Assembly: GCA_040005235.1 (NCBI GenBank)
Contig: JBDTZG010000025.1
Span: 13,485 to 77,484 of the forward strand
Reading direction: 5' to 3'
DNA from: Acidobacteriota bacterium
GTDB taxonomy: Bacteria > Acidobacteriota > Thermoanaerobaculia > Multivoradales > UBA5704
DNA length: 64,000 nt
Part shown: positions 4,101 through 56,558 of the stretch, in pieces
Layout: every line of letters begins with the position of its first letter
How positions within the stretch are numbered: position 1 is the first letter of the stretch
The notes under the pieces: generated by a model
What the model saw: only the letters and a program-made list of their open reading frames with translations
What the model was told of the DNA's origin: nothing
Database searches by the model: none
Translations under genes and position numbers: made by a program

Positions 4101-4835
4101 GAAAGCCTCGCGCAATACTCGGCGCTGATGGTGATGAAGAAGGAGTACGGCAAGGAAAAGATGCGGCGCTTCTTGAAGTACGAGCTCGACCAGTATCTCC
4201 AGGGGCGCGGCGGCGAGCTGATCGAGGAGATGCCCCTGATGCGGGTGGAAAACCAACCGTACATCCACTATCGCAAAGGAAGCCTGGTCTTCTACGCCCT
4301 CCAGGAAGCGATCGGCGAAGAGACGGTCGATCGAGCTCTCTCGCGCTATGTCGGAGAGGTGGCGTTCCAGGAGCCGCCCTATACCTACACGCCGGATCTG
4401 ATCAAGATTCTGCGCGAGGTGACGCCTCCGGGAGATCAGGGTTTGATCACCGACCTGTTCGAGACGATCACGCTCTACGACCTGCGCGCGACGACCGCCA
4501 CCTGGACGAAGCGGGCCGACGGAAAATATCTGGTGAAGCTCGCGGTCGATGCCAAAAAGCTGCACGCCGACGGCCGGGGAGTCGAGTCGCCGCTGGCGCT
4601 CGACGATTCGATCGACATCGGGGTCTTCGGCGAGAAGGAAGCGAAGACGAAGGGCGGAAAGAAGGAAGAGACGGTGCTCTATCTCGCGAAGCACCGGCTC
4701 ACGCAACCGATCTCAACGTTCGAGCTGGTGGTGGACGCCAAGCCCATCGAGGCGGGGATCGATCCGCTCAACAAGCTGGTCGATCGCACCTCGGACGACA
4801 ACCGGATGAAGGTGACGGCGGCCGGCACTTCCTAG
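1191..4835 (+). CDS. ABC-2 permease / M1 aminopeptidase fusion protein
   Basis: N-terminal half has many TM helices in two permease-like blocks; C-terminal HEVAH...ESLA (HExxH-x18-E) and the YRKG tyrosine motif of M1 peptidases. Confidence 0.9.
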   Translation: MSKNFREIFRFELYQTLRSPLFWGTGLFFATMTFGAVTSDSITIGGGIGNVQRNAPFVILQLLSVMSVIGVFVTTAFVAGAALRDFERGTHELFFSKPMAKLDYLGGRFAGSLVASTGVMVLCSLGILIGSFMPWLDAERIGPTLAGPYLFALALLVIPNLLLTGALFFALAAASRSWLVTYVAVVVFFAGFFIASLMLGDVDHQTLGALLDPFGASAINLATRYWTVADKNTALPPLSGILLWNRLIWTGVGLAVLSLSFATFRTSAGAPTYGALGRQMRRRKKTEAGAVEPQVRLAPVAVPAASRDFSSGRNRSLFFHALRRETVGVWKSIPFVVMLAFGMFNLAGSSVVRFERFGTKVYPVTALMLDNIQGSFVFLLVIIVTLYAGELVWRERELKVAEVTDALPVPSWVPLLSKIGALWIVILTFLTVGGLTAIGIQLSQAYTHVEPSLYAKGLAIDAVRFLLAAVLAVFFQVLCNQKFFGYLAMILFLISQTVLASLNFDHRLYRFADVPSMTYSDMNGYGHFLQGFAWFNLYWACFALLLLVGAVLFWVRGSESVWRLRAREAKARFRGPWRALAAAGLVAWVAIGGWIFWNTNVLNAYVPTDEKEHRQAEYEKQYRKYKDLVAPRIVDAEANVDIFPDERRVEIAGRYVLKNKSNRPEDTIHLQLDPQVKVRRLSLDPKWRTHFDEVQGYSIYKLPVPLAPGATMELSFQLTAEEKGFVTQDSQTSLVYNGTFFNNGQFFPALAYDESRQLQDRNDRRKYGLPPAVRMAKLEDANARRNNYLSGDADWIGFRATVSTSADQIALAPGYLKREWREGNRRYFRYEMDRPILNFYSFLSARWAAKKDVWHPGKENVAIEIYYDPAHAYNVDRMIDSAKKSLDYFTAKFSPYQHHQVRILEFPRYASFAQSFPNTIPYSESIGFIADLRDPENIDYVFYVTAHEVAHQWWGHQVIGGAVQGGTMLSESLAQYSALMVMKKEYGKEKMRRFLKYELDQYLQGRGGELIEEMPLMRVENQPYIHYRKGSLVFYALQEAIGEETVDRALSRYVGEVAFQEPPYTYTPDLIKILREVTPPGDQGLITDLFETITLYDLRATTATWTKRADGKYLVKLAVDAKKLHADGRGVESPLALDDSIDIGVFGEKEAKTKGGKKEETVLYLAKHRLTQPISTFELVVDAKPIEAGIDPLNKLVDRTSDDNRMKVTAAGTS

Positions 4836-4840
4836 ACGAT

Positions 4841-4869
4841 CCGGCGTGCCTCTCGGGAGCGCACGCCGG
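4841..4869. terminator. Hairpin between convergent genes
   Basis: CCGGCGTGC...GCACGCCGG inverted repeat between the stops at 4835 and 4880. Confidence 0.5.
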
Positions 4870-4879
4870 AGACTCGACT

Positions 4880-6649
4880 TTAGACGAAGCCTTGCATCTT
4901 GACGTATAGGTCCACCCGCTTCTGACGAAGCTTGCCGGGCTGATATTTCACCAACCATTCCTCCGGCTTCTCTTTGAGGAAGAGGTTGCCGTCATCCGAG
5001 GGGTGGCCCCCATTCGTGGTCGCTTCGACCACGGAGCGGAAATAGTAATGGTTGAAGATCCGGTTGAACTCGGTGAAATAGATGTCGGCCACCCGAAGAT
5101 CGCCGCGGATGACGAGCATGTTTTCGTCGTTCGATTTGGTCGAAGCGTCGCTGAAGTTCGCCGAGCCGGTGACCACGATCGGATCGGCGCCGAGCGGGTC
5201 TCGGAGGAGGAACTTCGAGTGGACGTAGCTTACGTGATGATTGAGCCCCAGCAGGCCGGCGTTCGTCTCTTTCGTCCACTGGTAGACGGGTTCGCGAAGA
5301 AACGAGCCCCACGCCTGGTAGGCGTTGTTCGAGGCGTTGATCGCGACGAACACTTCGGCGCTCTGGGGGTTCGGGACATCCTTTTTTTCGAGCAAGAGAA
5401 AGGTGATGGGGCTGGTGGCGTCGTGCGCCAGAAGTTTTTCCTTGAACTCCTTGTTGATCCCGAATGCGAGGGTGATGCAGGCAAGGTCCGCGGCCGTGTC
5501 GACCAGCGCGAAATAGGTATCGAGAATCGCGAGCTGGGAGCGGGGGCTGAACACGGGAGTCACCCCCGGTAGGACGCCTTCGACCGACGGCGGCACGAGA
5601 CCGAGCGCCTCGACGGCGGCCAACAGCGCGGTGTTCTCGCGCCGCACGTCGGCGGTCGGCTCGCCTTTCTTTCCTCCCGGATCGGTGCTCAACAAGTGCC
5701 AATAGGCGTCGAATCTCACCGCGAGGTCGGGGTTGCGCACCCAATGCCCGACGTTGGTCTGGCCGTGGATGCCGCCGAGCGACAGGTTCGTCGATCCGGT
5801 CCAAACTTCGGTGGGCTTCCGCGTCTTGCCTTTTTCCAGCACCATGAACTTGTTGTGCTGAATATTGGACGCCCTTGCTTCGCGCCAGACGATGCGGTCT
5901 TCGGGAATCTTCGTCGCCGCGACCATCTTCTTGTTGTCCTCCCGCGGGAAGCTCGGGCTGTCGGCGGTTGCGTTGACCTTTCCGTCGAGAATCAGCCGCA
6001 CGTCGACCCCGCGGTCGATCGCCTCCTTGAGCGCCAGGGCCACCGGCTCGTAGCGGAATTCGTAGAAGCAGCCGAGCAGCCCGTCGCCCTTTTTCGCCTG
6101 GTGGATGAACTTGAGGATCGCGTCGTCGAGATCGCGGCTCAGCCAGTCGAGTGCCTCCTGGTCCTTCGGAGGAAGGAGCTGGTCGGGCGGCAGGTTCTGG
6201 AATTTCCGCGCGTACGCCTGGCTGCTCGCCACACCCCGGTTGAAGAAGACGTCGTGCTCCAGCTTGCCGAAAAGGGGCTCGGTCTTGACGTGGATCGGGA
6301 TCGGCTTGGCGCTCCGGTCGAGGTTCTTGGGCTGGCCGCGCAGAGGGTAGAAGAAATATTCGTACCGCCGGCCGGGCTTGGCGGTGAAGTCGTCCCAGAC
6401 TAGGCTTTGCACGGGATGCTCGAAGGTGCTCACTTGGGTTTCTTCGTCCGGATGGGGGATGACCGAGGGGAACACCTTGAAGCCGGGCATGAAGTAGCGC
6501 TGTTTTTCTTTCGGGTCCAGGCGCTCGACCGCGAAACCCAGAAGACCTTTCCGTGCCGCCTCGCTCGCCTGGATCGCAAACGAGATCGTGTTGATCCCCG
6601 AGACCGCGAACACCTGAAACCCGCCATGCTTGGCCGATTTGAATCGCAC
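4880..6649 (-). CDS. Phospholipase D / Nuc-like superfamily protein (two HKD motifs)
   Basis: HNKFMVLE...TGSTN and HSKFLLRD...TGSANFS...NDEN; GTG at 6649 with AAGGAAAG RBS. Confidence 0.88.
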   Translation of the reverse strand: MRFKSAKHGGFQVFAVSGINTISFAIQASEAARKGLLGFAVERLDPKEKQRYFMPGFKVFPSVIPHPDEETQVSTFEHPVQSLVWDDFTAKPGRRYEYFFYPLRGQPKNLDRSAKPIPIHVKTEPLFGKLEHDVFFNRGVASSQAYARKFQNLPPDQLLPPKDQEALDWLSRDLDDAILKFIHQAKKGDGLLGCFYEFRYEPVALALKEAIDRGVDVRLILDGKVNATADSPSFPREDNKKMVAATKIPEDRIVWREARASNIQHNKFMVLEKGKTRKPTEVWTGSTNLSLGGIHGQTNVGHWVRNPDLAVRFDAYWHLLSTDPGGKKGEPTADVRRENTALLAAVEALGLVPPSVEGVLPGVTPVFSPRSQLAILDTYFALVDTAADLACITLAFGINKEFKEKLLAHDATSPITFLLLEKKDVPNPQSAEVFVAINASNNAYQAWGSFLREPVYQWTKETNAGLLGLNHHVSYVHSKFLLRDPLGADPIVVTGSANFSDASTKSNDENMLVIRGDLRVADIYFTEFNRIFNHYYFRSVVEATTNGGHPSDDGNLFLKEKPEEWLVKYQPGKLRQKRVDLYVKMQGFV

Positions 6650-6778
6650 AGTCCGCCCCCTTTCCTTACGTCGCGTCGTTCTCGACCGAAATTCAGTCTC
6701 TCGTAAAGGTCGCGATCTAAGAGTAGGACTGCGCCTCGGCATCCGTCAAGCGGGCTGGCTCCGCGTAGAATCCCCTTC

Positions 6779-9481
6779 GTGGAGCTGCTTTCGACACACG
6801 TCGGCGCCGATTTCGACGCTCTGGCCTCGGTGCTGGTCGCCCGGCGCCTGCACCCGAACGCCGAGATCTTCTTTCCCGGCTCGCGGGAGGCGTCGGTGCG
6901 CCGGCTGCTCGCTTCCGGGTCCGTAGAATTCGCCGAGCTGCGCCAGCGGCAGATCGATCCGGCGAAGATCGACAAGGTGATCCTCTGCGACGTCCGCCAG
7001 CGTGACCGGATCGGCAAGCTGGGGGAGTGGTTGGAGGAACGGCCGGAGATCGAAGTTTGGGCGTACGACCACCACGCGGACGGGGACCTGGAAATCTCCG
7101 GCGGCCGGGTCGATCCCGCTGTTGGCTCGACCTCGACGATCCTCGCCGAGCTGTTCGCCGAGCGGGATCTTGCGCCGACGGCGACTGAGGCGACGCTCCT
7201 CCTGCTCGGGATCTACGAGGACACGGGGGCACTCACCTATGCCACGACCCATTCGCGCGACCTGGAGGCGGCGGCCCGGCTGCTGCGCCAGGGAGGAGAC
7301 CTCGCGATCGTCCGCCGCTTTGCGAGCGCGGCGCTCGACCCGGAGCGGCTCGACCTTCTGCACCAGATCGCCCGCTCGCTCGAAGTCCACCGCATCCATG
7401 GCCACCGCGTCGGTTTGGCCGAGATTGATCTCCCGAACTATGTCGAAGAGCTGGCGCCGCTCGTTTCCAAAAGCCTCGATCTGTTCGGTCTGCCGACGAT
7501 GTTCGTCCTGTTCGCCTTCGAGGAGCGCGTCCTGGTGGTCGGCCGGGGCGACGCGGCGGGAGTCGATCTTGGCCGGATTCTCGGCGGTTTGGGAGGGGGA
7601 GGGCACTCCACCGCGGCCTCCGTGCGCCTTCTCGGTTCGCTGGTCGAGGTGCGAGAAAGGCTGCTCCTAGAGCTGGAGCGGCGCCTTCCCCCGGCAGCCC
7701 GGGCGCGCGACCTGATGGTGTCGGCAAGCGTGTCGCTCCATCCCGGCTCGACCATCGATCAAGCCAAGGAGAGGCTCCGGATCGGCGGCGTGAACGCCGC
7801 TCCGGTGCTCGACGGCGAGGGCCGGGCGATCGGCGCCGTTACCCGTCAACTGCTCGACGCGGCGCTCCAGCACGGGTTGGGGGACCGCTCGATCGAGACG
7901 GCGATGACGAAAGACCTCGCCTGGGTGCCCGCCGACGCGCCGGCCGACGACGTGGGGCGGCAGATGCTCGCGCTCCAGCCGCGCTTCGTTCTGGTGGGGG
8001 ATGCGAGCGACGGACGACCGCTGGGTCTCGTCACCCGCATGCAGCTGCTCCACTATCTGGGCGCGCGGCTCGATCTCGAAAACGAACCAGGAAGTCCGTC
8101 GGGCGCCGGGGGAGCGCTCCGCGTGGCAGGAGCGCGCGAGGGCCATCCCGAGCGGCACCGCGCCGCGCAGCGCGAAGCGGCGGAGCTGCTCTCCCGCTCG
8201 ATCGACCCGGTCACCCGAGAAACCATCGATCGGATCGCCGCCGTCGCTCGCGCCGAGCAGACCCCCGTTTATCTGGTCGGCGGCTTCGTCCGCGACTTGG
8301 CTCTCGGCCAAGAGAATCGCGATCTCGATCTGGTGGTCGAGGGAGACGGCCCGGCGTTCGCTCAAAGCTTGGGCCGCGCGCTTGATGCCCCCGTCCGAGT
8401 CCACGAGGCTTTCCTGACCGCGGTGGTCCGGATGCCGGGTGGCGAGATCGATGTGGCGACCGCGCGCAGCGAGTTCTACCGTGCCCCGGCGGCGCTGCCC
8501 GAAGTGGCCAGCTCCGCCCTACGCCAAGATCTTTACCGCCGCGACTTCACGGTGAACACTCTGGCGATCCGGCTGGGGCCGGAAAGCGCTCCCGAGCTGA
8601 TCGACCCCTTCGGCGGCCGGCGCGATCTGGAGGCCGGTGTCCTCCGCGTCCTTCACAGCCTTTCCTTCCTCGACGATCCCACCCGCGCGCTGCGAGCCGT
8701 CCGTCTGGAACGCCGGCTCGGCCTCCACCTCGTGCCCGAGACCGAGCGGCTGATCGGCATTGCGCTCAAAGAAGGGGCGTTCGACCGCCTCTCCGGAGCC
8801 CGCCTCCGCGCGGAGCTGGATCTCCTCCTCGCCGAACCGGCGATTGCGCTGCCCGGGCTCGAACGCCTCGCCGCATTGGGGGTCCTCGGAGCGATCGAGC
8901 CCCGGCTGGTTCACGATCGAACCCTGGCCCCCGAAGCGGCAGCCCGCCTCCGCGCCGCCCTCGCCGCCTGGGATTGGTACCGCCTGGAAGGGCACGACGA
9001 CCGGCCAGTCGATCTCGCCGAGCTGCTGGGCCTCGCGCTCAGCATCGATCTTCCCCTCGACGCCCGAAGACGCCTGGCCGATCGGCTGGCTCAGAACGGA
9101 CCGATCCGCGCAAGGCGCCTCGGAGCGGCGGAGGTCGTCCAAGGCGCGCTCGGAGCACTCGAAGAAAACGCCCGTCCGAGTCACGTCTCGACCGCGCTTT
9201 CGAACCTTCCCGGCGAAGAGCTGTTGCTCGCTTTCGCCGCAACCGACGAAACCGGCCGCGCCTGGATTCGCCGCGACCTCGCCGAGCTGCACAACCTCGA
9301 ACCCTCGATCCGCGGCGCCGACCTGATCGCGGCCGGAGTCCCAGAAGGCCCCGCCCTCGGCTCGGCGCTCCGGGCGGTCAAAAGCGCGTTGCAGGATGGA
9401 GAATTGGCGACCGGATGGGAGACGGAAATGGCGTTCGCGTTGGGAACGATACCTGTAGCCACCGTGGAGGAGTCGCTGTGA
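6779..9481 (+). CDS. DHH-DHHA1-CBS domain tRNA nucleotidyltransferase (CCA/A-adding type)
   Basis: DFDA, DHH, DTG and GGGH motifs; two CBS domains; class II NTase motifs LVGGFVRD, DLD, RRDFTVN, DDPTR. Confidence 0.88.
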   Translation: MELLSTHVGADFDALASVLVARRLHPNAEIFFPGSREASVRRLLASGSVEFAELRQRQIDPAKIDKVILCDVRQRDRIGKLGEWLEERPEIEVWAYDHHADGDLEISGGRVDPAVGSTSTILAELFAERDLAPTATEATLLLLGIYEDTGALTYATTHSRDLEAAARLLRQGGDLAIVRRFASAALDPERLDLLHQIARSLEVHRIHGHRVGLAEIDLPNYVEELAPLVSKSLDLFGLPTMFVLFAFEERVLVVGRGDAAGVDLGRILGGLGGGGHSTAASVRLLGSLVEVRERLLLELERRLPPAARARDLMVSASVSLHPGSTIDQAKERLRIGGVNAAPVLDGEGRAIGAVTRQLLDAALQHGLGDRSIETAMTKDLAWVPADAPADDVGRQMLALQPRFVLVGDASDGRPLGLVTRMQLLHYLGARLDLENEPGSPSGAGGALRVAGAREGHPERHRAAQREAAELLSRSIDPVTRETIDRIAAVARAEQTPVYLVGGFVRDLALGQENRDLDLVVEGDGPAFAQSLGRALDAPVRVHEAFLTAVVRMPGGEIDVATARSEFYRAPAALPEVASSALRQDLYRRDFTVNTLAIRLGPESAPELIDPFGGRRDLEAGVLRVLHSLSFLDDPTRALRAVRLERRLGLHLVPETERLIGIALKEGAFDRLSGARLRAELDLLLAEPAIALPGLERLAALGVLGAIEPRLVHDRTLAPEAAARLRAALAAWDWYRLEGHDDRPVDLAELLGLALSIDLPLDARRRLADRLAQNGPIRARRLGAAEVVQGALGALEENARPSHVSTALSNLPGEELLLAFAATDETGRAWIRRDLAELHNLEPSIRGADLIAAGVPEGPALGSALRAVKSALQDGELATGWETEMAFALGTIPVATVEESL

Positions 9482-23073: not shown

Positions 23074-23316
23074 ATGAAAGCGGTCACCTTGCGCGCTCAT
23101 TTCGACGGAGAGAGCCTCCGTTTGGACGAACCTTGCGAGCTGGACCGGGGCGCTCCTTTGACGGTCACCATCCGGCCCCAAAGCGAAGAGGCGGAGGAAC
23201 GAGAGTCGTGGTTCCTTTTGGCGGCTTCCTCCCTCGCGAGAGCCTATGGGGAAGACGAGCCCGACTATTCCTTGGACCTGATCAAAGAGCCCAACCCTGA
23301 CTATGAGGGAAGGTAA
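23074..23316 (+). CDS. Antitoxin (DUF104/AF2212-like N-terminus)
   Basis: LRAHFDGESLRLDEP...LTVTI; acidic tail LARAYGEDEPDY; overlaps the toxin gene. Confidence 0.75.
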   Translation: MKAVTLRAHFDGESLRLDEPCELDRGAPLTVTIRPQSEEAEERESWFLLAASSLARAYGEDEPDYSLDLIKEPNPDYEGR

Positions 23317-23653
23317 CGTCGCGATCGCGGCCCTCCCTCAGGTCGATGGCGAGAAGAAAAACCGCCCTATCCTGCTCCTGCGGGAGATGCCTCGCCATCA
23401 GGACTTCCTCGTTTGCGGGATCAGCTCTCGGCTTCTAAGACGCATTCCCGGGTTCGACGAGCTGATCGTGCCTGCCGATGCTGATTTCCGCTCGAGCGGT
23501 CTCCTCTCCCCCTCGCTCTTCCGGCTCGATTTTCTCAATGTCCTTCATCGGACGAAGATCATCGGCTCCATCGGATCGGTCTCCACCGAACGCCACCGCC
23601 GGATCTTGAGCGCCCTGAGCAGCTATTTGCTCGGTGACCTTTCGATTCCTTAG
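23303..23653 (+). CDS. PemK/MazF family toxin
   Basis: GNVAIAALPQVDGEKKNRPILLL, CGISS, SGLLSPS. Confidence 0.85.
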   Translation: MREGNVAIAALPQVDGEKKNRPILLLREMPRHQDFLVCGISSRLLRRIPGFDELIVPADADFRSSGLLSPSLFRLDFLNVLHRTKIIGSIGSVSTERHRRILSALSSYLLGDLSIP

Positions 23654-23700: not shown

Positions 23701-23790
23701 GGGTTGGAGCCGGGAGAAGGACAGGATGGGGGTCGCCGTGATCCCGCGCAAACCGCCCCGCCGCGCTACAATCGACGCTCAATCAAGCCC

Positions 23791-24501
23791 ATGGCGTCAA
23801 AGAAACCCCCGCTGACCGGTTCGAAGCATCCACTACCGTTTGGGGCGCTCGGTCCCGAGCAGTTCGAGCGCCTCTGCCTCTGGCTTGTCAGGCGAGAGAA
23901 GTTCGAGCGAGTCGAACACCTTGGCGAAGCGGGGAGTGAAGGCGGTCGCGATGTCGTGGGTTGGAAGGCGGAGCGCCGCTGGGTCTTCCAATGCAAGCGG
24001 GTTCGGGTGTTTTCCCTGTCGCACGCCAAAAAGGAGATCACAAAGCTCCGCGCACTGCCGCGAGATCAACAGCCCGATAATCTGGTGTTCGTGGTATCGC
24101 GAGCAGTTAGCGCCGAAACGCGCGAGGCCATCCGGACGCTGTGGGGCGACGAGGCGACCTGCCACTTCTGGAGCGGTAACGAGCTGGACGAGAGAGTGAA
24201 GTGCCATCCGGCTTTGGTCGCCGAGTTCTTCGAGCTTCCGCCGGACACCTCGCGGTTGGGCCGCCTGATCAGCCTTCCGTACGCTTCCCTCGGTGAGCTT
24301 TTCCAAGGCCGAGAAGAGGTGCTCGCCTCCCTCCACCAGAAGCTCACGGATGGAAAAAGCGGGAAGGCGACCGCCATCGCAGGAAAAGCCGTCCACGGTC
24401 TCGGTGGAGTGGGGAAGACTCGCCTCGCGATCCCCCTCCCCGGGGGAAGGAACCCTTCGCCAAAGGATTTCTTGGACTCGACCGGCTTCGAACACCGGTG
24501 A
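23791..24501 (+). pseudogene. Truncated Mrr-like restriction endonuclease + NB-ARC (STAND) protein
   Basis: FERLC...GGRDV...FQCKR PD-(D/E)xK domain, then FQGRE...VHGLGGVGKTRLA Walker A; similarity breaks immediately at the repeat. Confidence 0.8.
24431..24466. repeat. REP-like element, right arm
   Basis: TCCCCCTCCCCGGGGGAAGGAACCCTTCGCCAAAGG, approximate reverse complement of 23664-23700. Confidence 0.65.
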
Positions 24502-43601: not shown

Positions 43602-45638
43602 ATGCCGAAGATCCTGATTGCCGACCAGCTCGATCCGTACGGTCTCGACCTCCTCGCCAAGGCGGGCGCGGAGATCCGCGTGGTCCGAGACGACGAGCGC
43701 GGCCGGCTGGCCGAGCTGATCGCCGACGTCGACGCGCTGGTCGTCCGGAGCGCCACCAAGGTCACCGCGGATCTCCTGCGCGCGGGTAAGAAACTCAAGG
43801 TGGTCGGCCGGGCGGGCGTGGGCGTCGACAACGTGGACGTTCCCGCGGCGACCGAGCTGGGCATCCAGGTGGTGAACGCACCGACCGCGAACCTCACCTC
43901 GGCGACCGAGCACAGCCTGGCGCTGCTGCTCGCGCTCGCCCGGCAGATTCCGGCGGCGGACGCCTCGATGAAGCGGGGGGAGTGGGACCGGAAGACCTTC
44001 CTCGGTGTCGAGCTGGAAGGGAAGACCTTAGGCGTCGTCGGCTTCGGCCGGATCGGCCAGAAAGTGGCGGAGCGGGCCAAGGCGTTCGGAATGAAGATCA
44101 TCGCCTCCGATCCGTTCCCCAACGCGGACGCCGCCCGGCGGTTGGGGGTCGAGCTGGTGTCGATGGACGAGCTGATTGCCCGAGCAGACGCCTTGACGCT
44201 CCACACCCCGTTCACCGCGGAAACCAGGAACGTCATCTCGCGCGAGCGGATCTTCGCCATGAAGCCGGGGGCGCTGTTGGTCAACTGCGCTCGCGGCGGC
44301 CTGATCGACGAGGAGGCGCTGCTCGAAGCGCTCGACGCCGGGCGGATTTGCGGCGCGGCATTCGACGTCTACATCGAAGAGCCGCCCAAAGATCGGCGGC
44401 TGGCTCACCATCCCAAAGTGGTCGCCACCCCGCACATCGGCGCCCAGACCAGCGAAGCGCAAAAGCGGATCTCGGAGGAGACCGCCCAAAGGCTGCTCGC
44501 GGTGCTCGGAATGTCAATGCCCGCGGCGGCCGTGGCCGCGGGGGTTCCCTCGGACGGTGCCAAGAGAGTCCGGGTCGGAGTGATCTTCGGCGGCCGGAGC
44601 GTCGAACATCAGGTCTCGCTCCGCTCCGCGCGCACGGTGTTGCAGGGCCTCGAAGCAGCCGGGTACGAACCGGTGCCGCTGGCGGTCGCCGAGGACGGCT
44701 GCTGGCTGTCGCCGGAGGAATCGGCGGCGATCCTCAAGAGCGACGCGGCGGCCGTGCCAAAGGTCGGCAAACCGGTCGCATCCACCTTGGGCGCTCTCAC
44801 CGGCGCGAGGGTCGAGGCGCTCTTTCCGATCGTCCACGGCACCTGGGGAGAAGACGGCACGCTCCAGGGCCTGTGCGAGATGCTCGACCTGCCCTACGTC
44901 GGTCCGGGGGTCGCGACCAGCGCGCTCGCGATGGACAAGCTGCTCGCCAAGCGCCAACTGCGCGCGGCGGGCGTGCCGGTGGTGGACGACGAGCCGGTCA
45001 CGCGCGCCGGATTCGAAAGCGACCCCGGCGATATCCTCCGCCGCGCCGCGCGCTTTGCCTATCCGCTGTTCGTCAAGCCGAGCGTCGGCGGATCGAGCGT
45101 CGGCGTGGCGAAAGTCGACCGGCCCGAGGATCTGGCCGAAGCCGTGGCGTTCGCGCTGCGGTTCGACGAAAGCGTCCTGGTCGAGCGCGGGGTCGCCGGG
45201 CGCGAGCTGGAATGCGCGGTCTTGGGGGGAGCCGGTCGGCTCGAAGCCTCGGCGGTGGGGGAGATCGTCCCCGGCAACGCGTTTTACGACTACGCGGACA
45301 AGTACCTGCAAGACACCGCGCGCCTGATCGCGCCGGCCGAGATTCCGAAGGAGATCGAAGACCGCCTCCGCGCGCTGGCGGTCGCCGCCTTCGGAGCGCT
45401 CGGCGGCTCGGGGATGGCGCGGGTCGATTTCTTCCTCGAAGGCGAGAATCTCTACGTCAACGAGATCAACACCCTTCCCGGCTTCACCAGCATCTCGATG
45501 TACCCCCGCCTCTGGGGACTCTCGGGCCTCACGTTGCCGCAGCTCGTCGGCCGCCTGGTGGAGATCTCGATCGAACGCCATGCCGAGCGCCACCGGCTGG
45601 ACGCCGGAATCAAGCAGTTCCTCTCCGAACTGGCTTGA
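43602..45638 (+). CDS. ddl: D-3-phosphoglycerate dehydrogenase-like (SerA) :: D-alanine-D-alanine ligase fusion
   Basis: RAGVGVDNVD, GFGRIG, NCARGG, TPHIGAQT, then GGRSVEH, HGTWGEDG, GSSVG, FYDYADKY, NEINTLPGFT in a single ORF. Confidence 0.9.
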   Translation: MPKILIADQLDPYGLDLLAKAGAEIRVVRDDERGRLAELIADVDALVVRSATKVTADLLRAGKKLKVVGRAGVGVDNVDVPAATELGIQVVNAPTANLTSATEHSLALLLALARQIPAADASMKRGEWDRKTFLGVELEGKTLGVVGFGRIGQKVAERAKAFGMKIIASDPFPNADAARRLGVELVSMDELIARADALTLHTPFTAETRNVISRERIFAMKPGALLVNCARGGLIDEEALLEALDAGRICGAAFDVYIEEPPKDRRLAHHPKVVATPHIGAQTSEAQKRISEETAQRLLAVLGMSMPAAAVAAGVPSDGAKRVRVGVIFGGRSVEHQVSLRSARTVLQGLEAAGYEPVPLAVAEDGCWLSPEESAAILKSDAAAVPKVGKPVASTLGALTGARVEALFPIVHGTWGEDGTLQGLCEMLDLPYVGPGVATSALAMDKLLAKRQLRAAGVPVVDDEPVTRAGFESDPGDILRRAARFAYPLFVKPSVGGSSVGVAKVDRPEDLAEAVAFALRFDESVLVERGVAGRELECAVLGGAGRLEASAVGEIVPGNAFYDYADKYLQDTARLIAPAEIPKEIEDRLRALAVAAFGALGGSGMARVDFFLEGENLYVNEINTLPGFTSISMYPRLWGLSGLTLPQLVGRLVEISIERHAERHRLDAGIKQFLSELA

Positions 45639-49959: not shown

Positions 49960-50742
49960 ATGTCGGGAGATTCTCCGCGGCTGGCGGCTGGGCGCAAGCG
50001 AGCGCTTTTTCGGATCCTGCCTGCGGCCCTTGCCGGTCTGCTCGGTTCGGGGTTGGCATGCTCTGGAAATTTAGCGCGGAGCGCACCGGCCGGCCGGCGG
50101 GCGGCGGCCGTCAATTGCGCCGAGGGGGCGGGACTCGCCGTCGTGCCGCTGCCGTTACCCCACGGTTGGCGCCGTTCGCGGTTGACGCGAGACTACGTGC
50201 GCGGGCGGTATGACGCCCAAGCGACGTCGCTACGTTTCGTGCCCAGGATGATCGTCCTGCACTGGACCGAGCTGCCCGACCTCGCGGCGCTCTGGAACGC
50301 GTTCCGTCCCGCGACGATTCCGCCCTCGCGCCCGGAGCTGTTGTCCGCGGGGCGCGTCAACGTCGCGTCTCAGTTCGTGGTCGATCGCGACGGCGCGATC
50401 TACCGGCTGCTGCCCGAGACCGCGATCGCCCGCCACACGATCGGCCTCAACCGAGCGGCGATCGGGATCGAAAACGTCGGCGGCAGCGAGGCGCCGCTGA
50501 CCGAATGCCAGGTGCGCGCGGACGCCAAGCTGGTGACGGACCTCGCGGCGCGACATCCGACGATCCGCTATCTGATCGGCCACCACGAATACGGCCGCTT
50601 TCGCGGCACGCCGCTTTGGGAGGAGCGCGATCCGACCTACTTCACGAGCAAGGTCGATCCGGGGGACGAGTTCATGTCGGCGGTCCGGGCGCGGGTCGCG
50701 CCGCTTCGTCTGGGTGCCGAGTACGCAACGGTTCCGCCCTGA
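49960..50742 (+). CDS. N-acetylmuramoyl-L-alanine amidase (Amidase_2)
   Basis: IVLHWT, ARHTIGLN, IGIENVG, LIGHHE, KVDPG; possible lipobox LAC. Confidence 0.85.
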   Translation: MSGDSPRLAAGRKRALFRILPAALAGLLGSGLACSGNLARSAPAGRRAAAVNCAEGAGLAVVPLPLPHGWRRSRLTRDYVRGRYDAQATSLRFVPRMIVLHWTELPDLAALWNAFRPATIPPSRPELLSAGRVNVASQFVVDRDGAIYRLLPETAIARHTIGLNRAAIGIENVGGSEAPLTECQVRADAKLVTDLAARHPTIRYLIGHHEYGRFRGTPLWEERDPTYFTSKVDPGDEFMSAVRARVAPLRLGAEYATVPP

Positions 50743-50828
50743 CGCCTCACCCATTTCCCCGATGATCCCTCCCTCGGGCCGCACATTTCGTGCGGTCGAG
50801 TCGATAAATCTAAAGAGGAGACGAATAT

Positions 50829-51134
50829 ATGTCCGCTTCCACTCCGAGATTTCGCCCGGCCCACCTTCTGTTGATCGGTTGGATCGGTCTTCTCACCGCC
50901 GCCGCGGGGAGCGCCCCGGCGTCGGCGCAGCCGTTCGATTTCGGGATTTCCGCCCGGACCGTTTCGACCTGGATCGACGACTTCAGTCGTTGGTTCGACC
51001 TGACGGGAAAGCCGACGCCGCCGGAGAGCGGCACCTGTATCGATCCCAACGGCAAGCCGAGACCCTGTGACTCGGGCGAGGTCGCTCCCCCCGGGGCGAA
51101 GCGCGAGCCGGATCGCGCCTCCCCTCGAGGCTGA
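50829..51134 (+). CDS. Small secreted peptide precursor (GTCIDPNG motif)
   Basis: GAGGAG RBS, Sec signal ending ASA, amphipathic WIDDFSRWF, CIDPNGKPRPC. Confidence 0.7.
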   Translation: MSASTPRFRPAHLLLIGWIGLLTAAAGSAPASAQPFDFGISARTVSTWIDDFSRWFDLTGKPTPPESGTCIDPNGKPRPCDSGEVAPPGAKREPDRASPRG

Positions 51135-51145
51135 TGGGCGAGTTG

Positions 51146-51180
51146 TCCACCCCCGCCCAGGGTCGCAGGGGCGGGGGTGG
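51146..51180 (+). terminator. GC-rich hairpin after the peptide gene
   Basis: CCACCCCCGCCC...GGGCGGGGGTGG 12-bp stem. Confidence 0.55.
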
Positions 51181-51265
51181 GAACATTGGTTCTATTTGAC
51201 CGCTTCTCGCAGGAACGCGCGCATGCGAGAATACCGGCGCCGTCGATTCTCCCGGAGACCTACAC

Positions 51266-52594
51266 ATGACCGATCACCCTCCATCCGAGAGTTTTTCCGC
51301 GTTCATTGCGGGGAGTCTCGACCGGAGCGAGCGCAAACGGGTGATCCGTCATCTGATCGCCGGCTGCATGGACTGCGGGGATGCCGCGGCGTCGGCGTTT
51401 CAGGCGCTCGAAGGTCGGCGGTTCGGCACCGCACGACGCTACCGGCCCGAATGTTATGAATTTCCGGTTCGCTACGCCCTGCGCTCCGCACGCGCGACGT
51501 TCGCCCGCCTGGAGCGCGAAAGGGACGTGGCCGCGGGGGAGGTGGCGAAGGCGCTCGACAGCGATCTCGGACGGCTCCCCGCGCTGTCGCCGAGGGAGGC
51601 GGCCGGCCTGCCCGGCTGGGCTCGGGTTGAGGCATTGCTGGAATCCGGCGAACGCGTTCGCACGGAATGCCCGGCTCGCGCCTTGGAGGTGGCCCGGCTC
51701 GCGGTCGATGGGGCCGCGCGGCTCGATGTGGAAGTCCATCCGGCCGGCCACGTAGCCGATCTTCGGTGTCGAGCTCATGGGGAGCTGGCCAACGCATTCC
51801 GGTTGATCGGCGACCTCGTTGCCGCCGAGCGGTCGATGGCCGTCGCGCTGGAGCAGTGCGAGGAGGGGACCGGCGCCCCGGGTCTCGCCGCCGATCTGAT
51901 CGATCTCGGCGCTTCCCTGCGGATCGACCAGAGGCGGTTCGCCGAGGCGGAGGAAATGCTCGAACGGTTGATTGCGCTCCGCCGCGCCGAGGGACTACCG
52001 AGACAGGTGGGCAAGGCGTTGGTGCTCCAGGGCATCGCCGCGGTCTACGGCGAAGATCCGGCGGTGGCGCGCCTGCGCTTCCAGGCCGCTCTCGACCAGC
52101 TCGATCCGGTCGCCGACGGCCGGTTGGTGTTGATCGCCCTCCACAACCTGGTCGACTGCGAAATCGAGCTCGATCGATTCGAGGAAGCGCGCCGGGCGCA
52201 AAGAACCCTGGCGCCGCTCTACGAGCGTCATGCGGGGGAGATGGACCTGCTCAAACGCCGCGGCCAGGAGGGCAAGATCGCCGCCGGCTTGGGGGACTTG
52301 GGTGCTGCCGAAACGATCTTCCGCGAGACCCGGGCCGCCTACGAGATCCACGGAATGCCGGTCTACGTGGCGCACGCCGACCTCGATCTCGCGGCGGTCT
52401 GGATCCGTCAGGGGCGCTTTGCGGAGGTTTATGAAGCGGCCGACCATTTGGTCGCCTCATTTTCTGCGCTCGGCATCGGCCGCGAGGCGCTCGCCTCGTT
52501 CCTGCTACTCAAGGAAGCCGCGGGAAACGAAGAAGCGACGATCGCCCTGATCCGTTCGATCGGCGCGCAGTTGGGGCGGCCCGTTCGGTTCTGA
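51266..52594 (+). CDS. Cytoplasmic TPR-like protein with N-terminal zinc-finger (H..HxxxxCxxC)
   Basis: MTDHP...RHLIAGCMDC followed by alanine/leucine helical repeats (ELANAFRLIGDLVAAE, DQRRFAEAEEML). Confidence 0.75.
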   Translation: MTDHPPSESFSAFIAGSLDRSERKRVIRHLIAGCMDCGDAAASAFQALEGRRFGTARRYRPECYEFPVRYALRSARATFARLERERDVAAGEVAKALDSDLGRLPALSPREAAGLPGWARVEALLESGERVRTECPARALEVARLAVDGAARLDVEVHPAGHVADLRCRAHGELANAFRLIGDLVAAERSMAVALEQCEEGTGAPGLAADLIDLGASLRIDQRRFAEAEEMLERLIALRRAEGLPRQVGKALVLQGIAAVYGEDPAVARLRFQAALDQLDPVADGRLVLIALHNLVDCEIELDRFEEARRAQRTLAPLYERHAGEMDLLKRRGQEGKIAAGLGDLGAAETIFRETRAAYEIHGMPVYVAHADLDLAAVWIRQGRFAEVYEAADHLVASFSALGIGREALASFLLLKEAAGNEEATIALIRSIGAQLGRPVRF

Positions 52595-52759
52595 GGTTTG
52601 ACCCGAACCCCGGTTCGGCGGGCACCGGCGGCCCGTCTCCGGATCGCCCCCTCAAGGACCCTGTGCTACCATTTTCCGACCCGCACGGGGTCGCCCTCGC
52701 GATCCGACGTTCTCTCCCACGAGCCCAGGTTCGAAACCCCTCCAGAGAGGCTTCCCTCC

Positions 52760-53644
52760 ATGTCTACCAACGGCTCCCAGGTCCCCGGGCACCGCCCAGG
52801 TCTCTTGATCGCCATCGGCGGCGCCGAGGACAAGACGCGCGAGCGCAAAATTTTGCGCCGCTTCGTCGAGGCGGCGGGCGGCAGCAAGTCGAAGATCGCG
52901 ATCCTCGCGACCGCCTCGGCCTTGCCCGACACCGGCGAGAAGTACCGCGAGGTGTTTTCGGCGCTCGACGTGGCCGAGATCGTGGTCTTGAACGTGCCGG
53001 ACCGCGCGGCGGCGCTCGAAGTCGGCTCGCCGGTGCTCGAAGCGCTCGAAGGGGCCAGCGGGTTCTTCATGACCGGCGGGGGTCAGCTGCGGGTCACCTC
53101 GGCGCTCGGCGGCACGCCGATCGCTGCGACGATCCGGCGGCGTCACGCGGCGGGTATGGTGATCGCGGGCACCAGCGCCGGAGCGTCGCTGCTTTCCGAG
53201 CACATGATCGCGTTCGGCGAAGGGGGCGGCACGCCGCGCCAGCGCCAGGTGCAGATGGCCAAGGGGCTCGGCCTTGCCCCCGGCCTGATTATCGACCAAC
53301 ATTTCCGTCGCCGCGACCGGCTCGGCCGGCTGCTCACCGCGCTGTCGTACAACCCCGACCCGATCGGCCTCGGAATCGACGAGGACACCGCGGCGGTGAT
53401 CGATCCCGAGGGGATGCTCAGCGTGCTCGGCAGCGGTACCGTGACGATCGTCGAAGCGGCAGGGCTCACCTATACCGACACCCACCACGCCCTGCCGGGC
53501 AAGCCGCTCACCCTGCTCGGTCTGCGCCTCGACGTCCTCTCCGACGGCGCCCGCTACGACCTGAACGCCCGCCGCGGCCTGCCGCCGCTCGAAGCGCCGG
53601 TACCGGTTCCCGACCCCGAAGAGGTCGCGTACAGCGAAAGGTAG
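52760..53644 (+). CDS. cphB: Cyanophycinase
   Basis: IGGAEDK, TGGGQ, GTSAGA, IDQHF..RDRLGRL, GIDEDTA. Confidence 0.92.
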   Translation: MSTNGSQVPGHRPGLLIAIGGAEDKTRERKILRRFVEAAGGSKSKIAILATASALPDTGEKYREVFSALDVAEIVVLNVPDRAAALEVGSPVLEALEGASGFFMTGGGQLRVTSALGGTPIAATIRRRHAAGMVIAGTSAGASLLSEHMIAFGEGGGTPRQRQVQMAKGLGLAPGLIIDQHFRRRDRLGRLLTALSYNPDPIGLGIDEDTAAVIDPEGMLSVLGSGTVTIVEAAGLTYTDTHHALPGKPLTLLGLRLDVLSDGARYDLNARRGLPPLEAPVPVPDPEEVAYSER

Positions 53645-53664: not shown

Positions 53665-53780
53665 CGCCCCGGATCAACCTCACCCCCCGGCCCCGGCCTG
53701 CAAGTCTTCCGGCTTGCCGTCCCCCCCACCCGGCATGCTAGAAAGCAGTCGCCTTGAATTTCTCGCGAGCGGAGCGTGGC

Positions 53781-56558
53781 ATGAAGATTCTGGAGACGCG
53801 GGTCTACCGTGGGCCCAACCTGTATGCCCTTCGGCCGGTGATCCGGCTGAAGGTGGACCTCGAAGAGTTGGAGCAGTACCCCACCCAGAAGCTGCCGGGA
53901 TTCGTCGAGCGTCTGATCGCGGTGATGCCCTCGCTCGGGGAGCACACCTGCTCTTACGATCAGCCGGGCGGTTTCATCCGCCGGATGACCGAGGACGATG
54001 GGACCTGGATGGGCCACGTCATGGAGCACGTGGCGCTCGAATTTCAATGCCTCGCGGGAACTCCCGTCACCTACGGCAAGACCCGGTCGCGCGGCTTGCC
54101 CCTGGGGCAATACCACGTCATCTACAGCTACATGGAAGAGAGCGTCGGCGTGCGCGCGGGCGAGCTGGCGTTCCAGCTGCTGCGCACCCTTCTGCCGCCG
54201 GATCGCGAAGCGTACGACCCCGATCCGTTCGACTACGCCCATCACCTGGAGCGACTGGTCCGCCTGGCGCAGCGCCGGGCGTTCGGGCCGTCGACCGCAG
54301 CGCTGGTCAAAGCGGCGGAGGAGCGCGACATCCCGTGGATTCGGCTCAACAACCGATCGCTCGTGCAGCTCGGCCATGGCAAGTTCCAGCGCCGCATCCA
54401 GGCGACGGTGACCAGCGAAACCCGCCACATCGCGGTCGAGATCGCTTCGGACAAGGAGCTGACCAACCGCATCCTCCACGATCTCGGCCTCCCCGTGCCG
54501 CGCCAACAGCTGGCCTACGACGCCGAAGAGGCGGTAGCGGCGGCACAGAAGCTCGGCTTTCCGGTGGTGGTCAAGCCGCTCGACGGCAACCACGGCCGGG
54601 GGGTGTCGATCAACCTCGCGACCCCCGAGCAGGTGGAGACCGCGTTCGGCAAGGCCGAGGAACGTTCCGGGACGGTGATCGTCGAAACCTTCCAGCCGGG
54701 CAACGACTACCGGATCCTGGTGGTCGCGGGCAAAGTGCTCGCGGTGGCGGAGCGGGTGCCGGGCCATGTCGTGGGCGACGGCGTCCAGACCGTCGAGCAG
54801 CTGATCGAACAGGTCAATCTCGATCCGCGGCGCGGCGTCGGCCACGAGAAGGTGCTGACCCGTCTGGAGGTCGATCACCAGGCGATGCGCCTGTTGGAGA
54901 GCGTCTTCCTCACGCTCGAATCGGTGCCGGAGGAGGGCCGGATCGTCTATCTCCGCTCGACCGGCAATCTGTCCACCGGCGGCACCTCGATCGACCGTAC
55001 CGCCGCGATCCATTACGACAACCGGGTGATGGCCGAGCGGGCGGTCCGCGCGGTGGGCTTGGACGTGGGTGGCGTCGATTACATCTCGCCCGACATCTCG
55101 CGCAGCTATAAAGAGGTCGGCGGCGCGATCGTCGAAATCAACGCGGCGCCCGGTTTCCGCATGCACACCAGCCCGACCGAAGGGACGCCGCGCGACGTCG
55201 CCGGCCCGGTGATCGATCTTCTCTTCCCGCCCGGCACGCCCTGTCGCATTCCGATCGCGGCGATCAGCGGCACCAACGGCAAGACCACGACCACCCGGAT
55301 GGTCGGCCACATCCTGAAGCTCGCCGGCTGTACGGTAGGCATGGCGACCTCGGACGGCGTCTATATCGATGGCCAGCTCACCGTGCGCGGGGACCTCACC
55401 GGCCCCTGGGCGAGCCACCTGGTGCTGCGCGACCCGACGGTCGACGCCGCGGTGCTCGAATCGGCGCGCGGCGGCATCGTCCGTTCAGGCCTCGGCTGGC
55501 GCAAATGCAAAGTCGGCGCGGTGCTGAACGTCGCCTCTGACCATCTGGGGCTCGGCGGAGTGGACGACCTGGACGACCTGGCGGAGATCAAACAGGTGGT
55601 GGTCGAGGTGGCGCAGGACTATTGCGTCTTGAACGCCGACGACCCGCGCGTCGCGCGCATGGCCGCCGAAAGCCCGGGCCAGCCGATCTACGTAACGATG
55701 GAGCCGACCAACGACCTGGTGCGCCGCCACGTGCGCGAAAAAGGGCGCGCGATAGCGCTCGAAGAGAGCTTGAACGGCCGGCTGATCGCGCTCTACGACG
55801 GCGAGGAGCACGTGCCCGTCCTCTGGGCCCACCAGATCCCGGCGACGGTCGACGGCCACGCGCTCCACAACGTGCAGAACGCCATGTTCGCCGCCGGTAT
55901 CGCCCTCGGAATGGGCGTCAGCCTGGAGAACGTCCGCCTCGGCCTGCGCACCTTCTCGACCGATTTCTTCCAGGCCCCCGGCCGGCTCAACTTCTACAAC
56001 GAGCTGCCGTTCCGCGTGATCCTCGACTACGCGCACAACGCCCACGGCATGGCGGCGGTGGCGAAAACCATCCTCGCCCTCACCGTCCGCGGCCGGCGCA
56101 TCGGCGTGATCTCCGCCCCCGGCGACCGCCGCGACGAGGACATCCTGGAGCTGGCCCGCGAAGCGGCGCCCGCCTTCGATCTGATCATCCTCCGCGAAGA
56201 CGAAAACAAGCGCGGCCGAAAAATCGGAGAAGTGGGCGAAATCCTCCGCCGCGGCCTGATCGAAGCCGGCCTCGTGGCCGAACGAATCGTCGCCGGCGTC
56301 TACGAGGAGCAAGAAGCGATCGAACGCTCGCTCGCCACCGCCGAGCCGGGAGACCTGCTGGTCATCTTCGGCGACAACCTCCAGCGCGCCTGGCAGCTGA
56401 TCACCGGCTTCGGCAAACAGGGAACCGGCGAAACCGCTCCGGCATTTGAATCGGCCGCGGGAATCGCCGCGGAGCCGGGCCGGACCGAACGGCGCGAGGT
56501 GCCGGCGCGACGTCCGGCGGCGGCTCAGCCGGCCGAGGTGGGGGAGGCGGGGGACTAG
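53781..56558 (+). CDS. cphA: Cyanophycin synthetase
   Basis: GPNLY, HVMEHVALE, FGPST, KPLDGNHGRG, NLSTGG, EINAAPGFRMH, GTNGKTTT, DYAHN. Confidence 0.96.
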   Translation: MKILETRVYRGPNLYALRPVIRLKVDLEELEQYPTQKLPGFVERLIAVMPSLGEHTCSYDQPGGFIRRMTEDDGTWMGHVMEHVALEFQCLAGTPVTYGKTRSRGLPLGQYHVIYSYMEESVGVRAGELAFQLLRTLLPPDREAYDPDPFDYAHHLERLVRLAQRRAFGPSTAALVKAAEERDIPWIRLNNRSLVQLGHGKFQRRIQATVTSETRHIAVEIASDKELTNRILHDLGLPVPRQQLAYDAEEAVAAAQKLGFPVVVKPLDGNHGRGVSINLATPEQVETAFGKAEERSGTVIVETFQPGNDYRILVVAGKVLAVAERVPGHVVGDGVQTVEQLIEQVNLDPRRGVGHEKVLTRLEVDHQAMRLLESVFLTLESVPEEGRIVYLRSTGNLSTGGTSIDRTAAIHYDNRVMAERAVRAVGLDVGGVDYISPDISRSYKEVGGAIVEINAAPGFRMHTSPTEGTPRDVAGPVIDLLFPPGTPCRIPIAAISGTNGKTTTTRMVGHILKLAGCTVGMATSDGVYIDGQLTVRGDLTGPWASHLVLRDPTVDAAVLESARGGIVRSGLGWRKCKVGAVLNVASDHLGLGGVDDLDDLAEIKQVVVEVAQDYCVLNADDPRVARMAAESPGQPIYVTMEPTNDLVRRHVREKGRAIALEESLNGRLIALYDGEEHVPVLWAHQIPATVDGHALHNVQNAMFAAGIALGMGVSLENVRLGLRTFSTDFFQAPGRLNFYNELPFRVILDYAHNAHGMAAVAKTILALTVRGRRIGVISAPGDRRDEDILELAREAAPAFDLIILREDENKRGRKIGEVGEILRRGLIEAGLVAERIVAGVYEEQEAIERSLATAEPGDLLVIFGDNLQRAWQLITGFGKQGTGETAPAFESAAGIAAEPGRTERREVPARRPAAAQPAEVGEAGD

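Follow-up and report, generated by a model that had tools for sequence, protein, structure and literature searches.

The window analysed here is a 64,000-nt stretch of contig JBDTZG010000025.1 from an Acidobacteriota bacterium (GenBank assembly GCA_040005235.1). Two adjacent genes on its forward strand, separated by 131 nt, encode a 101-aa peptide with a signal-like N-terminus and a compact core containing Asp-Pro-Asn-Gly, and a 442-aa cytoplasmic tetratricopeptide repeat (TPR) protein. Each of the two is a genuine gene subject to purifying selection, and TPR genes of this family are preceded by a gene for such a peptide at almost all loci where the upstream region could be inspected. We consider the pair a candidate peptide/receptor module that resembles the RRNPP systems. 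The features of the locus, in window coordinates, are as follows.

50779..50795, + strand: inverted repeat CCGCAC-ATTTC-GTGCGG upstream of the peptide gene, possibly a hairpin in the 5' untranslated region or an operator
50816..50820, + strand: Shine-Dalgarno sequence AGGAG, 8 nt 5' of the peptide ATG
50829..51134, + strand: gene for the putative exported pre-pro-peptide, 101 aa, ATG start, stop codon included in the end
50829..50927, + strand: signal-peptide-like region, residues 1-33, by hydropathy and the small-x-small rule, with putative cleavage between ASA and QP
50958..50999, + strand: Trp/Phe-rich amphipathic segment TVSTWIDDFSRWFD, residues 44-57, read from the translation
51030..51071, + strand: core motif GTCIDPNGKPRPCD, residues 68-81, a DPNG turn within the C70...C80 loop
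51147..51180, + strand: GC-rich 12-bp hairpin 3' of the stop codon of the peptide gene, a probable terminator or attenuator
51204..51231, + strand: palindrome TTCTCGCA-N12-TGCGAGAA, 35 nt 5' of the TPR start codon
51266..52594, + strand: gene for the cytoplasmic TPR protein, 442 aa, ATG start, stop codon included in the end
51266..51421, + strand: zinc-finger-like three-helix domain, residues 1-52, with putative ligands H4, H29, C34 and C37 (H-x4-C-x2-C)
51608..52573, + strand: TPR superhelix, residues 115-436, 16 helices in approximately 8 repeat pairs (AlphaFold2 model, Foldseek, TPR_12)

As the G+C content of the window is 66%, spurious open reading frames (ORFs) are common in it. The 101-aa frame is more than a chance frame. 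Its G+C content at third codon positions is 0.775, compared to 0.60 and 0.66 at the first and second positions, respectively, and it has eight homologues besides itself, with 46-69% identity. The core GTCIDPNGKPRPCD is unchanged in 9 homologues save R78K, while the remainder of the peptide varies, so that the invariant block among close homologues is G-T-C-I-D-P-N-G-K-P-[RK]-P-C-D. Across the 14 core codons of the window and six orthologues, the variation is largely synonymous: ten third, one first and two second positions are variable. As the core varies mostly at third codon positions, the peptide reading frame is under purifying selection.

The ribosome-binding site, signal-like N-terminus, Trp/Phe helix and compact motif of the original prediction are all found in this ORF at the positions given there. 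Signal peptides in this study are called by a crude rule of our own, which asks for a hydrophobic core scoring 2.0 or more that is preceded by one or more Lys or Arg and followed by a small-x-small site. The N-terminus MSASTPRFRPAHLLLIGWIGLLTAAAGSAPASA, followed by QP, comprises a basic stretch with two Arg, a hydrophobic core with Kyte-Doolittle hydropathy of 2.25 (13-residue window, residues 13-25), and a small-x-small site. Downstream of TVSTWIDDFSRWFD the peptide continues as ESGTCIDPNGKPRPCD, and the string ESGTCIDPNGKPRPC is also confirmed. The TPR gene has GGAG before its ATG.

Linkage of the two genes and the peptide family

Scanning of one genome per species with a 17-sequence alignment of TPR proteins as the query yielded 79 loci in 57 assemblies (an alignment of 28 sequences had no stretch conserved enough to serve as a query). 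All 79 loci come from Thermoanaerobaculia, Holophagales or unclassified Acidobacteriota metagenome-assembled genomes, and the best one has 96% identity to the TPR protein of the window. To be counted as linked, a peptide frame had to lie on the same strand and end no further than 500 nt 5' of the inferred TPR start and no further than 60 nt into the tblastn match; it also had to have a start codon, DP.G in its last 45 residues, and a 13-residue hydropathy of at least 2.0 ahead of the motif. An earlier criterion, the longest ORF with [IVLMF]DP.G, was discarded, as it passed over loci with long upstream frames or with SDPNG. Only loci offering 400 nt or more of upstream DNA, 74 in all, entered the count; five further loci are too near the contig end.

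By this rule, a peptide ORF is found directly before the TPR gene at 69 of the 74 loci, compared to 2 of 6707 other frames of at least 50 aa in the same loci; one of these two (L048, 7977-8459) is a second peptide gene preceding a second TPR gene. Hence the suggestion, made in the original prediction, that TPR genes of this kind are repeatedly accompanied by xDPxG peptides in the lineage is borne out. Two loci missed by the rule carry a peptide that is recognized by eye: L052 has a 95-aa ORF, truncated at the contig end, in which three motifs are seen, and the peptide at L054 contains CGDAGPGIDPIG. No peptide ORF is seen before the TPR gene at L033, L034 and L045. Among 672 frames of the window, only the 101-aa ORF passes the rule. 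Moreover, two or three pairs of different classes, with differing motif flavours, are present in 21 of the 57 assemblies. Two unusual arrangements are a tandem peptide-TPR-XRE-peptide-TPR (L048, 5509 to approximately 10400), and two TPR genes that diverge around a single peptide gene (L051, approximately 3200-7500).

The pair is found in at least five unrelated gene neighbourhoods, which define classes A to E:

Class A (the window and L001-L006): TonB receptor, Amidase_2, the pair, cyanophycinase, cyanophycin synthetase
Class B (approximately 24 loci): ABC-2 permease-Peptidase_M1 fusion, the pair, then PRC, CDF or PALP genes
Class C (8 loci): GNAT, ABC1 kinase, one gene without assigned function, the pair, GH57 or amylase
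Class D (15 loci with XRE): the pair, then a small gene encoding an XRE protein with a helix-turn-helix (HTH) domain
Class E (20 loci): ferredoxin-domain protein, multihaem cytochrome, the pair, Peptidase_M19

The two genes are the only ones constant across these neighbourhoods, and the pair therefore appears to be a self-contained module. In class D (L026, L034, L035, L039, L041, L044, L046, L048-L051, L053 and L054 are examples), the XRE gene is convergent with the pair and lies 15-163 nt past the TPR stop codon in 12 of 15 loci, e.g., L035:4346-4807 on the minus strand; in four loci a second XRE gene is divergent and upstream. The TPR protein could have its DNA-binding partner in these XRE proteins.

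The anatomy of the family was derived from 70 peptide sequences of 68-129 aa. All 70 have a signal-like N-terminus, and in 69 of them a Trp is present within 45 residues after the hydrophobic core, in segments such as LDRLASFWGAV, FFSMVWNLLAN and WDWLGRLWSG. A Ser/Thr/Pro/Gly-rich linker connects this Trp helix with the DPxG motif or motifs, of which there is one copy in 38 peptides, two in 29 and three in 3. The family-wide core is G-x-x-[ILMVF]-D-P-x-G, without Cys: in the 105 motif copies, the residue preceding Asp is Ile, Leu, Met, Phe or Val in 99, Gly is found two to four residues ahead of Asp in 102, and the variable position of DPxG is occupied by Asn in 55 and by Ser in 24. The 70 peptides show little or no variation at G68, D72, P73 and G75 (window numbering). 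At most four residues follow the last motif in 35 of the 70, and none in 11. Motif flavours correspond one-to-one with orthogroups.

The Cys loop emphasized in the original prediction is not a general trait of these peptides. A Cys pair around the motif is seen only in the orthogroup of the window (C-IDPNGKPRP-C) and in a few class D members, and we therefore regard the loop as a local elaboration. The strict pattern C.{0,4}DP.G.{1,10}C, which had been considered as the family-defining feature, matched only 9 of 79 loci and was rejected.

Low-complexity sequence and an acidic to neutral charge prevail in these peptides. A profile built from all 70 retrieves at least 157 database clusters at E <= 0.001, all of them annotated as hypothetical and without a Pfam domain; scanning of the 70 sequences with Pfam and NCBIfam produced scattered chance-level matches and no family. 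In the ESM Atlas, the window peptide matches only Acidobacteriota clusters without names, and its model there is poor, with predicted local distance difference test (pLDDT) of 0.53.

The TPR protein and its N-terminal domain

The second gene encodes an all-helical TPR-like protein, as originally predicted. Pfam identifies TPR_12 (E = 8.3e-9), with TPR_MalT below the threshold and no catalytic domain, and no NCBIfam model matched. The AlphaFold2 model, built with 58 sequences, has mean pLDDT of 89.3 and consists of 21 helices and no strands. The whole model is matched by Foldseek to the TPR domains of LGN/Pins, Rap and KLC1 at E from 1.5e-5 to 6e-4, LGN/Pins being the best (approximately 1.5e-5). 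The Rap structures 8rtc, 3ulq, 4i1a, 3q15 and 4gyo are found at E from 6e-5 to 6e-4 with template modelling (TM) scores of 0.43-0.64. As designed consensus TPR proteins score about as well as the Rap structures, we interpret this result as a long TPR solenoid and not as membership in the Rap family. The protein has 108 database relatives, and, except for a weak tail, the named ones are all from Thermoanaerobaculia or Acidobacteriota. An XRE HTH is seen in only three distant relatives from this tail (P0099, P0104 and P0105).

The N-terminal residues H4...H29-LIAG-C34-MD-C37, which had been compared to the zinc fingers of anti-sigma factors, are present, and H4, H29, G33, C34 and C37 are invariant in the 50 N-termini of full-length members. 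In this respect the domain is similar to the zinc-binding anti-sigma (ZAS) domain, that is, zf-HC2 of RsrA, ChrR, RslA and RsiW: both are helical, of approximately 50 residues, with an upstream His followed approximately 25 residues later by H-x(n)-C-x2-C. The distance between the two His in ChrR is also 25 residues. The proposed likeness stands as far as the His/His/Cys/Cys site is concerned, while membership in zf-HC2 does not: the Pfam score is 15.8 bits, below the cut-off of 22.2 (E = 0.015), and the spacing is H-x4-C, the canonical H-x3-C-x2-C being found only in P0056 and P0060 of the 28-sequence alignment.

Other searches point in the same direction. Residues 9-48 are matched in a PDB profile search to RslA (E = 0.061) and DdvA (E = 0.89). 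Residues 1-110 modelled alone have pLDDT of 82.8; this model has no Foldseek match at E <= 0.001, and in nine of the ten best rows, as well as in most of the few rows after them, it is matched to chains of anti-sigma factors (RslA, ChrR, RskA, RsiW, MucA) of extracytoplasmic function (ECF) sigma factors, all at E >= 0.38, which is also the best value. When aligned by hhalign with a canonical zf-HC2 protein from locus L058, the domain has its H, C and C in register with a one-residue gap (P = 0.0084, probability 4.8%). The resemblance is thus weak, being consistent across searches and never significant.

Gene context lends no support to an output via sigma factors, which had been a part of the original prediction. 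No sigma-70 domain is found in 36 scanned ORFs of the 64-kb window. The flanks of the other loci were scanned using cluster representatives and ORFs of 100-400 aa; Sigma70_r2 is found in a single neighbour cluster, at 2 of 79 loci (L046 and L049), 1.4-2.5 kb downstream and never adjacent, and it is absent from 66 further flanking ORFs.

The N-terminal domain is not constant in the family. Class E proteins, of approximately 390 aa, start approximately 60 residues later and have no His/Cys/Cys motif, and the peptide gene is kept immediately upstream; the same loss of the zinc domain with retention of the peptide is observed at several class D loci, and L039, L056 and L060 show this pattern. Since class E retains the peptide without the zinc domain, the constant partner of the peptide is the TPR solenoid. 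Complex prediction for the full TPR protein with peptide residues 36-101, run without controls, scored 0.01 and 0.00, the mark being 0.32; by the rule of the tool, this speaks neither for nor against binding.

Candidate control elements and neighbouring genes

Both the AGGAGA preceding the peptide gene and the consensus CCGC.C.....G.GCGG of the upstream inverted repeat are kept in six aligned class A orthologues. The 12-bp hairpin expected between the two genes is present. The 74-nt stretch containing it has folding energy of -39.1 kcal/mol (z = -2.96), and none of 200 shuffled sequences folds as well. All seven class A orthologues have a GC-rich stem of 7-15 bp here, formed from different sequences, with U-tails in L002 and L004. 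The hairpin probably acts between the two genes as a terminator or attenuator; a promoter and terminator scan of positions 50600-52800 did not flag it and found no sigma-70-type promoter.

The palindrome 5' of the TPR gene belongs to an approximately 30-nt block that is invariant or nearly so in seven of seven class A orthologues, while the flanking spacer is poorly conserved. It could be an operator or a part of the own promoter of the TPR gene. Exact copies are present at 3 of 79 loci, all of class A. As the window has no second TTCTCGCA-N12-TGCGAGAA site at up to three mismatches, no regulon can be inferred from the palindrome. As both the hairpin and the conserved palindrome lie between the genes, their separate expression is suggested, with the TPR gene expressed and regulated on its own.

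Other classes have different upstream elements. In class E (L057-L078), a sigma-54-type -24/-12 element TGGC-N8-TGC[TA] precedes the peptide gene at 20 of 20 loci, 89-115 nt 5' of the chosen ATG at 18 of them, and 19 and 35 nt at the other two; this implies control by an enhancer-binding protein. Such an element is found at only 2 of 49 loci of other classes, the background being 0.0165 per 200 nt. In classes B and C, an element close to GGCAC-N10-TAGA, with a T-rich block before it, is observed approximately 100-160 nt 5' of the peptide start and fits neither the sigma-70 nor the sigma-54 consensus.

Directly 3' of the TPR gene, the window contains genes for cyanophycinase (52598-53644; TIGR02069, E = 1.8e-79) and cyanophycin synthetase (53754-56558), and this order is kept in L001-L005. 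Peptidase genes also flank the pair in classes B (M1) and E (M19). The ABC-2/Peptidase_M1 fusion of class B is on the same strand, immediately 5' of the peptide gene (e.g., L008, L011, L017). It might export or trim the peptide; alternatively, the arrangement may be mere inherited synteny. M1 aminopeptidases stall before Pro. In the window, an ABC ATPase gene (45-1172) is followed by such an ABC-2 permease-Peptidase_M1 fusion (1191-4832); the fusions are of 1200-1600 aa.

Two further observations concern other parts of the window. A single 678-aa ORF at 43602-45635 combines D-2-hydroxyacid dehydrogenase and D-Ala-D-Ala ligase, which recalls VanH plus VanA, and an ORF for a PemK/MazF-like toxin (23303-23650) adjoins an ORF with an Mrr-type restriction endonuclease domain (23704-24498).

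Interpretation of the pair

We propose, with a probability of roughly 40%, that the pair is a new module of peptide and receptor, RRNPP-like in kind and hosted by a diderm phylum. So far, modules of this type are seen only in Acidobacteriota (Thermoanaerobaculia and Holophagales). This proposal is ranked first because the pair has the five-point signature of RRNPP systems, its Sec signal being putative, and because tandem motif copies match the duplication seen in propeptides. The signature, as given in the accessible text of PMC10075063, comprises a small propeptide of 10-100 aa, a Sec/SPI signal, a receptor of 250-500 aa, TPRs and direct adjacency of the genes; tandem duplication of the mature peptide within RRNPP propeptides is reported in the same text (PMC10075063). 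Thus the analogy drawn in the original prediction stands at the level of the signature, with the signal assigned by our crude rule and the 101 aa of the peptide being at or slightly above the 100-aa limit, and fails at the level of sequence homology of the receptor and of an HTH or Rap effector domain.

The similarity to the RRNPP(A) systems (Rap-Phr, NprR-NprX, PlcR-PapR, PrgX, Rgg-SHP, AimR-AimP) lies in the adjacency of a small propeptide with a putative Sec-type signal and a cytoplasmic TPR protein of 250-500 aa, in the position of the conserved element near the C-terminus of the propeptide, where it is sometimes tandemly repeated, and in the number of repeats, approximately 8-9 here, as in the nine-TPR Rap/NprR/AimR type (PMC12700828, accessible text). 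The differences are also clear. The host is a diderm acidobacterium, whereas PMC10075063 and PMC12700828, in the text accessible to us, describe Bacillota and their mobile elements; the N-terminal domain is a zinc-finger-like bundle with the His/His/Cys/Cys site or is absent, rather than an HTH or the three-helix bundle of Rap; and the propeptides are longer than those of RRNPP(A) and have a conserved Trp helix.

Under the proposed mechanism, the product of the first gene would be a pre-pro-peptide exported via Sec, with removal of the signal peptide. Periplasmic or extracellular peptidases would then release one to three short peptides ending in or containing hydrophobic-Asp-Pro-x-Gly; in the subfamily of the window, the DPxG turn would be held in a nine-residue disulfide loop. 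The peptide or its fragment may re-enter the cytoplasm and bind in the concave groove of the TPR solenoid. Binding would alter what the zinc-binding N-terminal domain holds, be it a sigma factor, an XRE-type DNA-binding protein or another partner, and transcription would shift.

A more detailed version of this proposal seems to us possible and rather doubtful: in Thermoanaerobaculia and Holophagales, short peptides ending in hydrophobic-Asp-Pro-x-Gly, one to three per Sec-exported precursor, would be a family of genetically encoded signals, each sensed by its cognate intracellular TPR receptor, in a counterpart of RRNPP that evolved independently or is very anciently related to it, with a zinc-finger anti-sigma-like output instead of an HTH and with several orthogonal channels per genome.

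A number of observations weigh against an RRNPP-like module. The best PDB profile match of the TPR protein to an RRNPP receptor is RapF at E = 0.054, and no RRNPP family appears in the Pfam and NCBIfam results. The likeness of the fold is generic, as LGN and designed TPR proteins score as well as Rap or better. No oligopeptide permease gene is found among the 36 ORFs of the window or the scanned neighbour clusters and singletons, and, the host being diderm, the peptide would have to cross the outer membrane twice. The Trp helix, kept in 69 of 70 peptides, is unneeded for a simple propeptide spacer. In class A, the Cys-loop core (C70-C80) has 20 residues behind it and DPNG has 26, which would call for additional processing at the C-terminus. 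The core is more conserved across orthologues than the receptor (62-83% identity), with no pherotype-like diversification within a class. Finally, the output domain is a putative one, and sigma genes are not co-located.

The main rival to the RRNPP-like module is a regulator adjacent to the gene it regulates: the peptide would be an envelope or extracellular effector, whose gene is controlled by the TPR protein via its zinc domain or a partner such as XRE, with no binding of the peptide in return. For example, the amphipathic Trp helix could anchor at the membrane surface and display DPxG turns to a protein or the cell wall. This explanation, possible albeit unlikely in our estimate, accounts for the near-universal Trp helix, agrees with the Ser/Thr/Pro/Gly-rich linkers, which resemble tethered display, and does not need a permease, in accord with the absence of such a gene among the scanned neighbours. 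Regulators often adjoin their targets, the peptide genes have dedicated regulated promoters (all 20 class E loci have the sigma-54-type element, and in classes A to C there are upstream elements that are conserved), and small XRE genes are present beside the pair at 15 class D loci. However, it would be odd for a dedicated regulator to be a TPR protein that has no DNA-binding domain, and the near-absolute one-to-one pairing over five neighbourhoods, together with duplication of the whole pair at L048, is more typical of ligand and receptor or of toxin and immunity protein. Moreover, the often C-terminal and repeated position of the motif suggests released peptides and not a folded effector, and the low pLDDT of the peptide model also speaks against the latter.

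It is less likely that the TPR protein is a canonical ZAS protein, whose cognate ECF sigma factor is encoded elsewhere and whose regulon merely includes the peptide gene. An anti-sigma role is a reading of the output step; as such it is compatible with an RRNPP-like module and does not compete with it. Here the invariance of H4, H29, C34 and C37 in 50 sequences and the agreement of weak matches (zf-HC2, RslA and DdvA in profile searches, the top ranks of Foldseek, and the H/C/C alignment of hhalign) have to be set against the fact that every match is below significance, the H-x4-C-x2-C spacing, the presence of a sigma-70-region gene within approximately 2.5 kb at only 2 of 79 loci and never adjacent among the scanned neighbours, and class E, which has no such domain altogether. 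Fusion to a long soluble TPR sensor also distinguishes the protein from ZAS factors. The accessible text of PMC7826278 places soluble anti-sigma factors in 10 ECF groups and describes no ZAS-TPR type, and the architecture is absent from the accounts in the accessible parts of both PMC7826278 and PMC8999054. The nearest parallel is ECF42, where a C-terminal TPR extension is proposed to control sigma activity via protein-protein contacts (PMC7826278; PMC8999054, accessible text). Similarly to our case, the TPR domain is a sensor there, but it is fused to the sigma factor itself, and these texts describe no secreted peptide partner; our TPR domain is instead joined to an anti-sigma-like one and has a peptide gene as its regular partner.

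Still less probable is a membrane-active, bacteriocin-like peptide, with the Trp helix as the active part and the TPR protein as a cytoplasmic immunity or holding protein, which would shield the producer or maintain the precursor in an inactive state until export. Immunity proteins of class IIa bacteriocins are cytoplasmic helical proteins, and the Sec signal, the Trp-rich amphipathic helix, the disulfide loop around a Gly-rich turn in some classes, the strict one-to-one pairing and several diverged pairs per genome all agree with this explanation. On the other hand, known immunity proteins do not resemble a TPR solenoid of 390-450 aa with a zinc site, the peptides, largely of low complexity, tend to be acidic to neutral rather than cationic, no dedicated exporter or processing gene accompanies the pair in all classes, and it is DPxG, not the helix, that is most conserved. 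A ribosomally synthesized and post-translationally modified peptide (RiPP) with modified DPxG cores, the alternative named in the original prediction, is very improbable despite the core being repeated one to three times and invariant within a class and the Cys pairs in two classes, because the five neighbourhoods (TonB receptor/amidase, ABC-2/M1, ABC1 kinase, XRE, cytochromes, M19 dipeptidase) have no modifying enzyme in common, and since, moreover, the TPR protein has no catalytic domain and the N-terminus of the peptide is a Sec-type signal and not a RiPP leader. Both of these explanations fit less well than the regulator with its effector.

A literature search, with subscription-only papers outside its scope, found neither the pair nor DPxG peptides described, and no RRNPP-type system from beyond Bacillota. 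Should the RRNPP-like module be real, it would be the first candidate peptide communication system for Acidobacteriota, an abundant and poorly cultured soil phylum, and it would have a new output architecture, in which a TPR sensor carries an anti-sigma-like domain of the zinc-finger type. A remote outgroup would help to root the RRNPP family (PMC12700828, accessible text), and the module would either serve as such an outgroup in studies of RRNPP evolution or exemplify convergence. Even if signalling is the wrong explanation, two uncharacterised protein families and a rule linking them have been described; if the pair is functional as proposed, it adds a new phylum, a new receptor architecture and a new peptide family to RRNPP-like systems.

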